From Candidatus Parcubacteria bacterium (lineage in GTDB: Bacteria; Patescibacteriota; Patescibacteriia; Patescibacteriales; BM507): a DNA stretch of 64,000 nucleotides. The notes below the pieces were generated by a model that did not search any database, had not been told where the DNA came from, and worked only from the letters and a program-made list of their open reading frames with translations. Positions 25,388-30,901 of this stretch are shown one piece after another; the first letter of the stretch is position 1; each line of letters starts with the position of its first letter. The DNA lies in assembly GCA_002869265.1 (NCBI GenBank), contig PKTH01000040.1, positions 69,120 through 133,119 of the forward strand, written 5' to 3'. The translations under genes were made by a program, and so were the position numbers.

Positions 25388-25439
25388 TATTTTAAAAAAA
25401 GTATTATTAAAATACTTTTTTATTATTTAAACATTAAAT

Positions 25440-25751
25440 TTATCGTATCATATCAAGCAATCCCGGAGTCAACGATTCTATGTTTGGGACATTATTCACG
25501 GTGGATCCGATATCTAGAATAGTTTTGTACTGCTCTAAAACTTGCTCTAGTATCGGTGGTAGGTAAATAAGTCCAATTATTATTGGTATAAGAAATATAA
25601 AGACCTTTAAAAAGCCAAAGACTTTTTGCCAAAAAATATATTTCTTTATATAAGTAATTGATTCATGAATTTCCTCTGTAAGCTCTACATTTCTTTTCAA
25701 TAAATCTTTAATTTCATCAGAGTAATTATCTGACTCTACATTGTTTGACAT
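25440..25751 (-). CDS. Small membrane protein, unknown function
   Basis: 103 aa with one strongly hydrophobic segment (VFGFLKVFIFLIPIIIGLIYLPPIL). Overlaps the nrdG 3' end by 26 nt. Confidence 0.45.
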   Translation of the reverse strand: MSNNVESDNYSDEIKDLLKRNVELTEEIHESITYIKKYIFWQKVFGFLKVFIFLIPIIIGLIYLPPILEQVLEQYKTILDIGSTVNNVPNIESLTPGLLDMIR

Positions 25752-26469
25752 ATTTTTTTGCTATTTGACACATCTCATCCATCTCCTTCTCAGTAAAAGA
25801 TGAAGCTCCTTCGAATGTGTCGTTAACTAATTTAGTGTCAGATTTAAATGGTTGTAAAAACCACTTCTCTGCCCCTTTAATTAATCCACCCATATCATTA
25901 ATAATTTCCTTGTCGTGAAGCTCGGGGACTAAGGTTGTTCTAAACTCATATGGAAGACCAGACTTCATAATAATATCAATGCTTTCTTTTATTTTATTCA
26001 TTTCTGGATCAATCCCCGTAACCAAATCATAGTTTTTTTCAGATCCCTTTATATCCATCGCAAGATAATCCAATAGTTTTTCTTCCAAGACATCTAAAAG
26101 CATCTTGGGGTTGGTTCCATTAGTATCCAACTTCACCTTAAAGCCTAGTTTTTTTATTTTTTTAATAAACTCCGGTAGATCGTAGTGCATTGTTGGCTCT
26201 CCGCCAGTAATGACAACTGCGTCTAATTTCCCTACTCTTTCTTTTAGAAAATCAAAAAGATTATCTTGACTTATTAGATAATCTTTCTGATCTCCCCCCA
26301 AAGGAGAGTTGTGGTCATATATTGACTCACTAGCACTGTTTTCAGGCCAGACAAGCATAGGGTTATAACAAAATTGGCATCTAAAATTACATCCTTTGGT
26401 AAATACGATAGCAGAAAGGTGTTCTGGGTAATCTATCAAGCTGAATTTTTCCAAGCCGCCAATTATCAT
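25726..26469 (-). CDS. nrdG: Anaerobic ribonucleoside-triphosphate reductase activating protein (radical SAM)
   Basis: CNFRCQFCYNP cluster motif, GGEP motif (ITGGEPT), and location next to nrdD. Confidence 0.88.
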   Translation of the reverse strand: MIIGGLEKFSLIDYPEHLSAIVFTKGCNFRCQFCYNPMLVWPENSASESIYDHNSPLGGDQKDYLISQDNLFDFLKERVGKLDAVVITGGEPTMHYDLPEFIKKIKKLGFKVKLDTNGTNPKMLLDVLEEKLLDYLAMDIKGSEKNYDLVTGIDPEMNKIKESIDIIMKSGLPYEFRTTLVPELHDKEIINDMGGLIKGAEKWFLQPFKSDTKLVNDTFEGASSFTEKEMDEMCQIAKKYVKQCRVR

Positions 26470-26503
26470 TTTTGTTTTGGTTTTTCTTATTTAAACTATA
26501 AAG

Positions 26504-26641
26504 CTACTTACTCATTTTGTATGTCTTTCTGTCTACATACTCCGCTTTCTTTCCTTTGTTCCAATTAGTGGTTGGCGTAATCCAGCCTACTACTCTTGAG
26601 TAAACTGTGCATTCTTGTCTTTGAGTTTGTTTAGGGGACAT
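26504..26641 (-). CDS. Stand-alone glycyl-radical C-terminal segment of class III RNR (45 aa)
   Basis: Below the ORF-track size cut-off. My translation is MSPKQTQRQECTVYSRVVGWITPTTNWNKGKKAEYVDRKTYKMSK. YSRVVG(W/Y)..P...WN.GK..E...R matches the conserved NrdD C-terminus carrying the radical glycine. Confidence 0.7.
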   Translation of the reverse strand: MSPKQTQRQECTVYSRVVGWITPTTNWNKGKKAEYVDRKTYKMSK

Positions 26642-26728
26642 AGTTTTTGTTTTTTTGTTGAAAAATTTATTTTAAATATATTCAACAAGCTCCTTATTAT
26701 TTATAATTATTTGAAAAATTAATATTTA

Positions 26729-28837
26729 TTATTTTTTAGCCAATACTTTTTCTTTCTTCTTCTTTGTGTTTAGGGTGTAACCCATCTCTTCATCGCATTT
26801 TGGACAATATTTATGTTCACCGGCCAAATATCCATGAGTTGGACAGATAGAAAAAGTGGGTGTAATAGTAAAATATGGCAATCTATGAGTTTCGGCAATC
26901 TTCTTTACTAATTTCTTGACAGACTCTGGATTGTCTATTTTCTCTCCTATGAAGCCGTGTAGAACTGTTCCTCCGGTATACTTTGTTTGAAGGTCGTCTT
27001 GAAGTTCAAGTGCTTCAAAGATATCGTCTGTATAACCAACTGGTAGATGTGAAGAATTAGTATAATATGGATTTGCATCATCATTTTTATAGGCTTCTTC
27101 ATTGGCCACTACAATTTCTGGGAACAACTCTTTATCTTTCTTCGCGAATCTATAGGTTGCTCCTTCAGCAGGAGAGGCTTCAAGGTTGTAAAGATTGTTT
27201 GTTTCGTTTTGATAATTCATCAAGGTATCTCTCATGAAATCAAGAACCTCAGTGGCAAGCTTTTTACCTTCTTTTGTTGTAATGTCCTTTCCTAAAAAGT
27301 TTATCAAAGACTCGTTCATTCCGTTAATCCCAATAGTGTTAAAGTGGTTTTGCCAGTATGTATCAAATCTTTTTTTAATATCAACTAAGTAATATTTAGA
27401 ATATGGATATAAACCGTCATCTGTGAATCTCTCAATAACTTTTCTTTTTATTTCCAAACTTTCCTTAGCTAAATCCATTAGACGTAGTAATTGCTTTTTA
27501 TACTCCTTTTTGTCTTTAGCCAAATATCCAATTCTTGCAAGATTTATGGTTACAACACCGAGGCTTCCTGTTAGTGGGTTGGCTCCAAACAAACCTCCTC
27601 CTCTCTTTCTAAGCTCTCTATTATCGAGTCTCAGTCTACAACACATAGATCTAGCATCATCCCTATCCATGTCCGAATTAATAAAGTTTGAAAAATATGG
27701 AATTCCGTATTTTGCTGTCATTTCCCAAACTGGTTTTAATTCTTTTTTGTTCCATTCAAAATTCTTATCTACGTTATAGGTTGGGATAGGAAAAGCAAAT
27801 ACTCTTCCAGTGGCATCACCTTCAATCATTACTTCGGCATAAGCTTGATTAAACATATCCATTTCTTTTTGAAAATCACCGTAGGTCTCTTTTTTGATAT
27901 CTCCGCCAATAATCACATGTTCTTTCTTCATTTGCTTAGAAGGAGTAACGTCTAATGTAACATTTGTAAACGGAGTCTGAAAACCCACTCTAGTCGGGAC
28001 GTTGATATTGAACATGAACTCCTGAAGAGCTTGCTTAGTGTCTTTGTATGACAGTTTATCGTATCTAATAAAAGGTGCTAAATATGTATCAAAATTTGCA
28101 AATGCCTGTGCTCCAGCTGCTTCACCTTGAAGGGTATATAGAAAATTGATTATCTGGCCCAGGGCTGATCTAAAATGTTTCGGTGGTTTACTTTGAACTT
28201 TTTCACCAACCCCCCCAAAACCTTTCATTAAAATATCTTTAAGATCCCAACCGCAGCAATATGGTGCCAACATCCCTAAGTCATGAATATGAAATTCTCC
28301 TTCTGTGTGCGCCCTCCTAATCTCTTGGGGGTATAATTTATTTAACCAATACTTTGCTGAAATTGCTGATGATAAATAATTATTTAATCCTTGGACTGAG
28401 AAACTCATATTTGAGTTTTCTTTCAATCTCCAATCTGCTCTCCCCAAATAATCCTCCATCAACTTGGCTTCAACCTTCTCGTTATTAATGTCTCTTAGTT
28501 GTCTGTGCTGATCTCTATATAGTATATAAGCTTTCGCAACTTTAATCTGTTTGTTTTTAATCAATACCTCCTCAACCACATCTTGTATCTCCTCAACCGC
28601 GGGAATACTTCTCTCGTGAAATCTTTTTATAACTTCTTTAACCACTTTTTCTGTTAAAGTTTTGGCTAATTTTTTATCAGCTTCTCCAACTGCTTCAATG
28701 GCTTTATTGATAGCTTTTTCTATCTTCTTCGTATCAAATTTAACGATTTTGCCTGATCTTTTAATAATTTGTTTGATCGGCTTTGCGGCGGTTTTTTGTG
28801 GCATGGGGGTTTTTAGAAGAATTATTCGGGGACTCAA
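26729..28837 (-). CDS. nrdD: Anaerobic ribonucleoside-triphosphate reductase, main body lacking the glycyl-radical tail
   Basis: N-terminal ATP-cone (IIKRSGKIVKFDTKKIEKAI), SMCCRLRLD...GGGLFG block, and a C-terminal Zn site CPTHGY...CPKC. Ends in a Lys-rich tail and TAA with no RVxGY motif. Confidence 0.9.
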   Translation of the reverse strand: MSPRIILLKTPMPQKTAAKPIKQIIKRSGKIVKFDTKKIEKAINKAIEAVGEADKKLAKTLTEKVVKEVIKRFHERSIPAVEEIQDVVEEVLIKNKQIKVAKAYILYRDQHRQLRDINNEKVEAKLMEDYLGRADWRLKENSNMSFSVQGLNNYLSSAISAKYWLNKLYPQEIRRAHTEGEFHIHDLGMLAPYCCGWDLKDILMKGFGGVGEKVQSKPPKHFRSALGQIINFLYTLQGEAAGAQAFANFDTYLAPFIRYDKLSYKDTKQALQEFMFNINVPTRVGFQTPFTNVTLDVTPSKQMKKEHVIIGGDIKKETYGDFQKEMDMFNQAYAEVMIEGDATGRVFAFPIPTYNVDKNFEWNKKELKPVWEMTAKYGIPYFSNFINSDMDRDDARSMCCRLRLDNRELRKRGGGLFGANPLTGSLGVVTINLARIGYLAKDKKEYKKQLLRLMDLAKESLEIKRKVIERFTDDGLYPYSKYYLVDIKKRFDTYWQNHFNTIGINGMNESLINFLGKDITTKEGKKLATEVLDFMRDTLMNYQNETNNLYNLEASPAEGATYRFAKKDKELFPEIVVANEEAYKNDDANPYYTNSSHLPVGYTDDIFEALELQDDLQTKYTGGTVLHGFIGEKIDNPESVKKLVKKIAETHRLPYFTITPTFSICPTHGYLAGEHKYCPKCDEEMGYTLNTKKKKEKVLAKK

Positions 28838-28855
28838 CCTTATAATTCTCTCCTT

Positions 28856-29341
28856 TTACTTTTTATTGTTTAATGTTTTTTTAGGTTTTTTCTTTTCGAA
28901 GAGTTTGTTTAACTCTTTTTTGAATGTTGTTACATCTTCAAATGCCTGATAGACACTAGCGAATCTTATATAAGCTACCTTATCTATTTTTTTCAGTTGA
29001 TTCATTATGATTTGCCCAACCTCGTCCGAACTCACTTCATTTTTCCTTAGCTTCTGTATATCTCTTTCAATCAAATGGATTAATTGTTTAAATTTATCGT
29101 CTGATACTGATCTTTTTTCTAAAGACTTCTTTAACCCTTTAACTATTTTTTCTCTACTGTAATTTTCTTTTTTGTCATCTCTTTTTACAACGGTTAGATC
29201 CAAAATTTCGATCTCTTCGAAGGTAGAAAATCTAAAACAACACTTAAGACATTCTCTTCTCCTCCTAATAGACAAACCGTCACTTGCAACCCTCGAATCT
29301 ACAACCTTTGTGTCTTGAAAATAACAGACTGGACATTTCAT
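28856..29341 (-). CDS. nrdR: Transcriptional repressor NrdR
   Basis: Zn-ribbon MKCPVCYFQDTKVVDSR...CLKCCFRFSTFE followed by an ATP-cone. Confidence 0.92.
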   Translation of the reverse strand: MKCPVCYFQDTKVVDSRVASDGLSIRRRRECLKCCFRFSTFEEIEILDLTVVKRDDKKENYSREKIVKGLKKSLEKRSVSDDKFKQLIHLIERDIQKLRKNEVSSDEVGQIIMNQLKKIDKVAYIRFASVYQAFEDVTTFKKELNKLFEKKKPKKTLNNKK

Positions 29342-29423
29342 ATTTTTTGCTTATTCCTATAAAAAACTCCCTAAAAATGAGGCTTGGGGAGCTTAAATAG
29401 ATGTAAATCAGCTATTAGGACTT

Positions 29424-29471
29424 AATCTATATATAGTATATCTACTATCTTCTTCATACTATATATTGTGT
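29424..29471 (-). promoter_or_regulatory. Tandem NrdR boxes
   Basis: Minus strand ACACAATATATAGTAT (29471..29456) and ATACTATATATAGATT (29439..29424). The centres are 32 bp apart, and the boxes lie upstream of nrdR-nrdD-nrdG. Confidence 0.65.
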
Positions 29472-29604
29472 TATATCTATATTATATCACGCCCAAATTT
29501 AGTGTCAATAATCGATCACTTATCTAATTTTAGAGTATTCATGGGGCTAAAAAATTAAAGTTAAATTAAAGAGAAAATTTTAAATATTTTTTTAGCAAAA
29601 ACCC

Positions 29605-29631
29605 TGTGGATAAGTCAAAAATTGGGGATAA
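29605..29631 (-). promoter_or_regulatory. Two DnaA-box-like 9-mers
   Basis: The reverse complement of 29605..29613 is TTATCCACA (perfect consensus). The reverse complement of 29623..29631 is TTATCCCCA (1 mismatch). Both have the same orientation, 18 bp apart. Confidence 0.4.
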
Positions 29632-29666
29632 GTGTCTTTCGTTTTCATGTTTTCAAGAATAAAAAA

Positions 29667-29687
29667 AGGATTATAATATATAATCCT
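29667..29687. terminator. Bidirectional terminator after ftsZ
   Basis: AGGATTATA-ATA-TATAATCCT hairpin flanked by A7 and T6. Confidence 0.65.
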
Positions 29688-29710
29688 TTTTTAAAATATA
29701 TTCAATATTT

Positions 29711-30901
29711 TTACATCATCTTTTTTCGAATAAAGGCAGGAATTCCGATCTCCTCATCTTCTTCGTCTGTTTCTGTCTGCATTCCAGTATCTTTTTTTGC
29801 TGGCTCTTGTTGTGCTTCTTTAAGTGGTGATGTTTTAGTCTTCTTTTCCTCTGGCTTGTCTTTAGCTTTGTCGTCCTGGTCATCTGCCAAGAAAGAGCTT
29901 GGAGTATATCCTCTTTCAATAGAGCCCAGTTCACTCTTCCCTCCAACTTTTCCGTCAAAACCAGTTGCCACAACAGTTATCTTAACCTCATCTTTCATTT
30001 TTTCATCAACCACCGTACCAAATATAATCTTGGCATCTTCGTCAGCTGAAGCTGTAATAACCTTTGATGCTTCACTTACTTCAACCATCCCCAGTGAAGT
30101 TCCACCGGTAATAGTAAATAATATTCCTCTTGCTCCTTCGATTGACATTTCAAGTAAGGGTGAATTTATAGCCGCTTTAGCTGCTTCTAGAGCTTTATTC
30201 TCTCCACTAGCCTGGCCGATTCCCATTAGGGCTGACCCAGCATTGGCCATAACTGCTTTCACGTCTGCAAAATCAACGTTAATCAGACCGGGTACTGTAA
30301 TTAGTTCAGCAATACCCTGAACCCCTTGTCTTAGAACTTCATCAACTATTTGAAAAGCATCGAGTAGTGATGTTTTCTTATCAATACTTTGCAAAAGTTT
30401 ATCATTTGGAATTGTAATAATGGTATCAACTTTATCTGAAAGCTCTGTTAAGCCTCTGTCAGCCAAGTTTTTCCTTTGCTGTCCTTCAAAAGAAAATGGC
30501 TTTGTAACAACAGAAACGGTCAAAGCACCTAGATCTCTAGCTATTTCAGCTACTACCGGAGAGGCTCCTGTGCCAGTTCCACCACCAAGTCCACAAGTTA
30601 CAAAAACCATGTCAGCGTCTTTTAGGGCATCTCTAATCTCGTTTTGAGATTCCTCTGCCGCTTGCATCCCTAACTCTGGGTTCATTCCGGCCCCTAAACC
30701 TCTTGTGATTGCCTTTCCTATGTGAATTTTTGTGTTTGCCTTATTGTAATGCAAGGCCTGAACATCTGTATTTACTGCAATAAACTCAACTCCTTTTACG
30801 CCAGCGTCAATCATTCTATCGATTGCGGTTCCTCCTCCGCCTCCTACGCCAACTACTTTAATTTTAGCAAAAGTTTCAATTGCTGGTTTTACTTCAGCCA
30901 T
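29711..30901 (-). CDS. ftsZ: Cell division GTPase FtsZ
   Basis: GGGTGTG signature ([15 protein letters not shown]), NTD/T7 region, and the C-terminal FtsA-binding peptide [11 protein letters not shown]. Confidence 0.95.

Follow-up and report, generated by a model that had tools for sequence, protein, structure and literature searches.

Class III ribonucleotide reductases (RNR) are canonically single-chain enzymes. In the canonical systems of T4, E. coli, T. maritima and P. copri, the NrdD chain carries an ATP-cone, a barrel, a Cys loop, an NxN flap, a Zn ribbon and a radical-bearing glycine loop with the motif RVVG[YW], and an adjacent gene encodes the radical-SAM activase NrdG. Glycyl-radical enzymes swing the glycine loop out of the barrel for activation and back in for catalysis, and how this is achieved is debated. 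Oxygen cleaves a glycyl-radical protein at the glycine. The locus described here lies in a 64,000-nucleotide (nt) stretch, the window, of contig PKTH01000040.1 of a Candidatus Parcubacteria bacterium (GCA_002869265.1), and all coordinates are window positions. It shares with the canonical systems all the components listed above, whereas its glycine loop is encoded on a separate polypeptide of 45 amino acids (aa). The comparative evidence makes it very likely that the locus specifies an obligate two-polypeptide class III RNR; the peptide would be obligate because no glycine loop is present on the large subunit, the body.

Several other systems resemble this arrangement in part. GrcA/YfiD and T4 Y06I, which serve PFL, are likewise small stand-alone radical-Gly proteins that use the activase of their partner, and phage copies exist. 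GrcA, however, has about 127 aa, is PFL-homologous and serves as a reserve for a PFL already equipped with a glycyl-radical domain, whereas the peptide of this locus is NrdD-homologous and provides the sole glycine loop. The original prediction had likened the peptide to GrcA: the likeness holds for a small stand-alone radical-Gly protein and fails for a peptide that appears obligate and is not related to PFL. According to a June 2026 review, spare-part proteins are known for no glycyl-radical enzymes other than formate lyases (PMC13450708). The split class II enzyme NrdJa/NrdJb of Pseudomonas aeruginosa and Thermus phage YS40 also builds its catalytic chain from two consecutive, cooperating open reading frames (ORFs), with a functional module on the C-terminal piece. 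It belongs, however, to another RNR class and has another split point, and NrdJb, instead of providing the radical site, forms a folded domain whose IscU-like and Zn-finger parts serve re-reduction (PMC9669993). In phage nrdD genes that are broken up by group I introns, inteins or homing endonucleases (T4 sunY, Aeh1 nrdA-a/b and phiAS4) the same enzyme is encoded by a gene in pieces; these are mobile-element interruptions or sporadic breaks in single phages (PMC3653736), whereas the split NrdD contains no element, is cut at a fixed position on a domain boundary and is conserved over hundreds of lineages. Class I RNR (NrdA and NrdB) is alike in function, since a stable radical is held on a separate, dissociable subunit. 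NrdB has no homology to the peptide, and its metal/tyrosyl radical contrasts with the glycyl radical, made by a radical-SAM enzyme, that is expected here. A full-text literature search, with subscription journals outside its reach, yielded no report of NrdD being divided at this boundary.

The genes are placed on the minus strand of the window in the order nrdR, nrdD body, 45-aa ORF and nrdG. The body ORF (26729..28837) has 702 aa counted from TTG 28837 and closes with a TAA at 26731..26729. The length of 702 aa given by the original prediction is correct for the extent of the ORF; the true start is probably ATG 28804, which gives the 691 aa of the NCBI record P0001, because close relatives begin MP(K/Q)xTAAKPIKQ. 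The sequence, Pfam and NCBIfam bear out the other features ascribed to this ORF, namely the ATP-cone, the CCRLRLD block, the CPTHGY..CPKC site and a Lys-rich tail that reaches TAA before any Gly motif. The body retains in addition the NxN flap (ENSNM) and the barrel. Its Cys loop MCCRLRLD and its Zn ribbon CPTH..CPKC are invariant across 68 sequences. It scores 1056 bits with NF006126 (cut-off 548; profile positions 3-656 of 684) and 533 with TIGR02487 (cut-off 326), and its AlphaFold2 model fits the class III RNR structures 8p2c, 9d3x, 4u3e and 1h79. The segment coding for the Zn ribbon, as read from the sequence, is 26795..26845. The D-E-E-M-G-Y codons at 26777..26794 are the last constrained part of the body, as judged from pN/pS and alignment A4. 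A short, variable, Lys-rich tail follows and is closed by the tandem stops TAA TAA (26726..26731), 21 residues past CPKC.

A spacer of 87 nt with stops in all three frames (26642..26728) separates the body from the 45-aa ORF, which starts with ATG, occupies 26504..26641 and encodes MSPKQTQRQECTVYSRVVGWITPTTNWNKGKKAEYVDRKTYKMSK. The radical Gly is codon 19 of this peptide, a GGC at 26587..26585 within SRVVGW. The ORF, its position and its identity as the C-terminus of NrdD agree with the original prediction; the gap between it and nrdG is 34 nt and not 35 nt. The predicted tryptic fragments of the peptide are QECTVYSR and VVGWITPTTNWNK, and its expected N-terminus is (M)SPK. The Pfam NRDD family (PF13597, 562 positions) is divided between the two ORFs, with positions 1-529 in the large one (E = 1e-185) and 530-562 in the small one (E = 2e-8), and the two matches abut exactly. 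The two ORFs jointly span one full-length NrdD homologue, as in split RNR genes, and both are under purifying selection. Among the features of a class III RNR, the NRDD barrel, the Cys loop, the Zn ribbon and a neighbouring NrdG were found, and a radical Gly motif on the same chain was not. The peptide is matched by the NrdD models of Pfam and NCBIfam only; it gave no match to the PFL or Gly_radical families, and neither NCBIfam nor PHROG holds a family dedicated to it.

The position of the cut follows the domain structure of the enzyme. In T. maritima NrdD an inserted Zn ribbon, CxxxHx6CxxC, separates the last barrel strand from the C-terminal Gly loop (PMC4493059); in P. copri NrdD the Zn site, the buried Gly loop and a tail on the surface together form the C-terminal domain (PMC11226230). 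This domain is highly mobile in P. copri and is invisible with dATP (PMC11226230); the glycyl-radical domain has to exit the barrel for activation (PMC11226230, PMC4493059). The cut in the window leaves the Zn ribbon on the body and puts the glycine loop and the surface tail on the peptide. The alignment with intact NrdD that the original prediction had proposed places the insertion between CPKC-x3 and C-E-V-Y (alignment A4). It comprises the stop, the spacer and the start, preceded by about 18 residues of the tail and followed by about 10 N-terminal residues. Intact single-chain relatives (L057, L062 and L066) are 60-65% identical. The sequence CPKC-D-E-E-x-G-Y is derived, strongly constrained and common to the main class of split NrdDs, and intact NrdDs do not have it. 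A role of peptide Cys11 as a fourth Zn ligand was considered and dropped, since in T. maritima the ribbon itself provides a Cys3His site and several intact enzymes have another residue in place of Cys11.

The split is conserved across Patescibacteria and some other lineages, and hundreds of relatives encode a separate peptide; complete genomes such as CP066698.1 are among those with the split. The 120 best database homologues of the body (74-100% identity; Patescibacteria including Falkowbacteria) all end soon after CPKC and lack the Gly motif, a recurrence that puts the split far beyond chance. From GTDB, 80 species-level loci were retrieved; 79 could be classified, 67 as split and 12 as intact. 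The intact loci are more distant, and their sequence reads CPKCGEPCEVYSRVVGYLRP. Among the 150 nearest representatives of clusters at 50% identity, drawn from 1.8 billion proteins, at least 56 are without the loop and about 50 retain it. An NCBI metagenome-assembled genome, a JGI metagenome and a Logan assembly supplied the three nearest relatives (L081-L083), each of which contains nrdR, nrdD, an NRDD-positive gene of 47-48 aa and nrdG. The order body-peptide-nrdG is the usual one. Two Synergistota loci (L078 and L080) have the order body-nrdG-peptide, and the phage-like contig L086 has its peptide gene 2.4 kb 5' of the body, with six small ORFs in between. Small stand-alone peptides form 34 database clusters of 41-72 aa, and the databases name such ORFs 'hypothetical' or 'anaerobic ribonucleoside-triphosphate reductase'.

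The strength of selection along the locus was estimated as pN/pS. The ratio is 0.21 in the 30 codons of the body ahead of the Zn site and 0.13 in the DEEMGY that follows CPKC, and it rises to 0.79 in the next nine codons of the body tail. In the nine in-frame codons immediately 5' of the peptide ATG it is 0.97, and then it falls to 0.28 in peptide codons 2-10 and to 0.16 in the peptide core, with synonymous sites saturated (pS ~0.8). Selection thus shows where body function stops and where function resumes, exactly at the peptide ATG. This ATG is conserved. The residues M1, R16, G19, P23, N28, K31, E34 and R38 of the peptide are invariant, and a Cys stands at position 11 in 32/32 close-clade sequences. 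Among relatives the peptide gene lies 4-304 nt downstream of the body, mostly less than 130 nt, in frame 0, 1 or 2 relative to it, and in several of them it is preceded by a canonical GGAGG 5-8 nt 5' of the ATG.

These data bear on two explanations in which the small ORF would not be a gene in its own right. The original prediction had left the choice between a functional two-piece enzyme and a recently disrupted gene. If the split were a recent pseudogenisation, or an assembly or sequencing artefact, the small ORF would be a leftover, as might be suspected from a window peptide three residues shorter than those of the nearest relatives (TAG for a sense codon) and from a Lys-rich body tail that is nearly unconstrained. 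The same architecture recurs, however, in independent assemblies and samples, in the 67 species-level genomes and in all 120 best protein clusters; the peptide is under purifying selection with saturated synonymous sites, the body is also under purifying selection, and nrdG is intact. A disrupted gene or artefact is refuted on these grounds and retains only the faintest probability, and the functional two-piece enzyme is the part of the earlier proposal that conservation and selection back.

The second explanation is that the pieces are rejoined into one chain by a self-splicing intron, by translational bypass or frameshift, or by protein trans-splicing. Group I introns and inteins are known to reside in phage nrdD (PMC3653736), many relatives of the body carry inteins at other sites, and the spacer forms a hairpin. 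The spacers of 4-304 nt are nevertheless too short for group I or group II introns and are not conserved in sequence. Neither window 25400..29800 nor any of 14 loci matched an Rfam family, and the 304-nt spacer of L061 rose no higher than sub-threshold noise. The body ends in TAA TAA with stops in every frame of the spacer, and the flanking tails are too short for split inteins. Taken together, the independent ATG, frames, selection and gene orders, the short unconserved spacers and the lack of an Rfam match exclude splicing, bypassing and frameshifting. Rejoining in cis is moreover impossible where the peptide is parted from the body by nrdG or by six ORFs, or stands alone in a phage locus. 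Rejoining as a whole is therefore very improbable.

In the two-polypeptide enzyme, the 691-aa large subunit would contribute everything through the Zn ribbon, and the separately translated 45-aa peptide would supply the radical-bearing C-terminal loop that normally dips into the barrel. The peptide would bind non-covalently at the place of the covalent loop, where it would probably touch the inside of the barrel, the NxN flap and the conserved DEEMGY at the end of the body. NrdG would abstract the H-atom of Gly19 on the free or flipped-out peptide. The radical would then be handed to the Cys loop as in ordinary NrdD, and catalysis and the reduction of the nucleoside triphosphates would proceed likewise.

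Some observations weigh against this scheme. No Shine-Dalgarno sequence is present within 15 nt of the peptide ATG in the window, and the same is true of the window nrdG. The peptide of the window is without the C-terminal D-A-C kept by the nearest relatives, being three residues shorter because a TAG replaces a GAx sense codon (26504..26512). AlphaFold2 run on the concatenated chains left the peptide unplaced, with a pLDDT of about 30 for residues 678-736, the peptide part having no alignment depth. With the concatenated chains as a single sequence the pLDDT was 35, and with 67 body homologues it was 73.7 for the body and about 30 for the tail and peptide. Finally, the check for a second RNR covers 64 kb of genome only.

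This last point touches the explanation that the peptide is not the partner of the adjacent body. The peptide could be a GrcA-like spare part for another, intact NrdD, or the body could have another radical source or function, and the phage loci that hold a peptide without a nearby body would fit such a role. T4 Y06I and GrcA act towards PFL in the way that a phage peptide without a body would, namely as spare parts. The body, however, has no glycine loop and yet keeps all catalytic and regulatory motifs under selection; nearly every cellular locus has body, peptide and activase side by side; and among the window ORFs of at least 420 aa there is no second nrdD or other RNR. A peptide serving elsewhere is quite improbable, if a little less so than rejoining.

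The peptide is also found in viruses. A search of IMG/VR with the peptide profile gave 470 stretches, and the best 80 loci (L089-L167) were examined with their flanks within 4 kb. In 77/80 of these the peptide is encoded by a small ORF that starts with an ATG of its own, and neither tblastn nor a hidden Markov model of the body detected an nrdD body within 4 kb; of the remaining loci, one contains an intact NrdD and two have a body nearby. No nrdG was found in the 77 loci by tblastn with the NrdG of the window. The viral stand-alone ORFs encode 41-110 aa (for example L094:4001-4126 and L104:4001-4126), and one identical peptide occurs in five contigs (L099-L103). Their neighbours are tail fibre, endolysin and RuvC-like resolvase genes. 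The viral peptides have a pN/pS of 0.33 over 63 distinct sequences and are thus under purifying selection. GenBank phages gave only two matches, each annotated as, or resembling, the C-terminus of a full-length NrdD. The peptide of the phage-like contig L086 (L086:5446-5598) matches positions 115-155 of 179 in the PHROG profile phrog_4132, of unknown function (E = 6e-9). Sequenced phages may already hold a stand-alone NrdD-type glycyl-radical protein family that has passed unrecognised. Within the 4-kb flanks covered, the viral pattern is the one to be expected of a self-sufficient, limiting peptide, although a more distant body is possible.

What the cell would gain from the split is a separate question. 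Oxygen damage strikes the radical site, and a split enzyme would therefore lose only 45 residues per hit. A spare-part or dosage advantage, in which only the peptide is lost, the body is re-armed and the supply of peptide is set independently of the body, is possible, and we put it forward with reserve. More tentatively still, the peptide might be a consumable radical subunit able to dissociate: produced in surplus or as needed, it would be activated by NrdG, enter the body, fall victim to oxygen and be replaced, and phages that carry only its gene might use it to re-arm host NrdD bodies and boost the supply of deoxynucleotides. The main alternative to the spare-part advantage is a functional two-piece enzyme whose fission was selectively neutral, inherited without benefit, for example as the scar of a mobile element or as a partial duplication. 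The shared derived CPKC-D-E-E-x-G-Y suggests one old and widely inherited event, the body tails drift, and the nrdD of these lineages is full of inteins and homing elements. On the other hand, the split types differ at the body end (DEEMGY, CPYEH.., CPKCDxELL.. and forms of about 100 aa with their own CxxC..CxxC), and this diversity suggests more than one fission event. Phages have also acquired the peptide gene alone and keep it under selection, which argues that peptide supply matters, and one clade has a sigma-70-like promoter in its spacer. Neutral fission is less likely than not. In a neighbour-joining tree most split sequences fall in large, old clades.

The promoter just mentioned occurs in a sister clade, whose spacers contain a sigma-70-like TTGTAA or TTGTTT, 17 nt and TATAAT, placed 11-74 nt (mostly 44-74) 5' of the ATG (L006, L008-L010, L012, L014, L016-L020, L022, L023, L025, L028, L029, L031 and L038). 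This suggests that in that clade the peptide and nrdG could be transcribed apart from the body. The spacer of the window itself contains no internal promoter above shuffles. It contains an AAGGAG (26690..26695), 48 nt 5' of the peptide ATG, in line with the approximately 50 nt and the absence of an obvious Shine-Dalgarno sequence noted in the original prediction. The AAGGAG is kept in the four closest genomes (alignment A1), and a hairpin (26655..26688) lies between it and an A-rich leader. The corresponding regions of the relatives are L081:5100-5171, L082:5112-5184 and L083:5115-5190, each followed by an A-rich leader and the ATG. The hairpin has -6.9 kcal/mol in the window (z -1.6), and z is -3.6 in L081 and -3.3 in L082, as single folds. 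Its stem sequence is different in each of the four closest genomes, with the structure kept, and across 54 loci the spacers fold more strongly than shuffles (mean z -2.1). RNAalifold gave no consensus structure for the four spacer sequences, because the hairpins are out of register. The AAGGAG-hairpin could act as a structured region for ribosome binding, stabilise the mRNA or mark a processing site.

The C-termini of the two chains show a further regularity. Peptides of the nearest relatives (L081-L083; P0121-P0123) end ..K-D-A-C or ..S-C, with Cys last. In other clades, body tails that end in CxxC pair with a Cys near the C-terminus of the peptide (e.g. ERCSTC with KVACSE). These paired Cys hint at an inter-chain metal site or a redox pair. 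A longer stand-alone form of about 95-137 aa has its own CxxC...CxxC before the glycine loop (L074:6166-6468, L076:5964-6377 and the viral L118, L122, L142, L157 and L163); in this form the cut seems to be located elsewhere, or a second ribbon to have been added.

Other NrdD relatives differ in their architecture. Many of them (P0155-P0304; L084/L086:8001-11204; L087:8933-12007) have 800-1900 aa and match the query in 2-5 stretches, with breaks close to residues 124, 188, 287 and 400 of the query. For P0189, Pfam matches to Intein_splicing and LAGLIDADG are on record, and the nrdD of these lineages is thus taken to be heavily colonised by inteins. The NrdD representatives P0190, P0210, P0218, P0227, P0244 and P0251 carry a thioredoxin- or glutaredoxin-like C-terminal segment (TCPNCK...APTLVV), which suggests a fused reductant.

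The cluster in the window is completed by its first and last genes. The first, nrdR (28856..29341, minus strand), encodes the transcriptional repressor of RNR genes, as indicated by Pfam matches to Zn_ribbon_NrdR and the ATP-cone, and has the same position in L081-L083. A promoter with a perfect TTGACA, 16 nt and TG-TATAAT lies 5' of it (29426..29508, minus strand). Two AT-rich, palindrome-like boxes, ACACAATATATAGTAT and ATATACTATATATAGA, follow with centres 30 nt apart; we take them to resemble NrdR boxes, which would imply autoregulation of the whole cluster. The last gene, nrdG (25726..26469, minus strand), encodes a radical-SAM activase with the cluster motif CNFRCQFC; it scores 201 bits with TIGR02495 (NrdG2; cut-off 131) and matches Pfam Radical_SAM. 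A 103-aa ORF with one predicted transmembrane helix (25440..25751, minus strand) overlaps the end of nrdG by 26 nt. It has no Pfam family, and by single-sequence tblastn its homologues lie directly 3' of nrdG in at least 25 split loci (22 from GTDB and L081-L083) and in 0/12 intact loci. The whole window has a GC content of 36%, and its ORFs of at least 200 aa stop with TAA in 27 cases, TAG in 10 and TGA in 1.

The split has consequences for the reading of genomes and for the biology of RNR. Among Patescibacteria, hundreds of NrdD entries probably pass as complete or truncated, with the small partner labelled 'hypothetical' or missed, and RNR surveys that insist on a glycine motif would draw wrong conclusions about these genomes. 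A natural free loop of 45 aa would make activation, docking and radical transfer separable; the peptide can be synthesised and labelled, and repair after oxygen damage becomes testable. [quoted passage not shown] If the peptide is indeed a consumable subunit, this class III RNR would resemble class I in storing its radical on a subunit of its own, and the peptide would be both the smallest radical-bearing enzyme subunit and the smallest phage auxiliary metabolic gene known.

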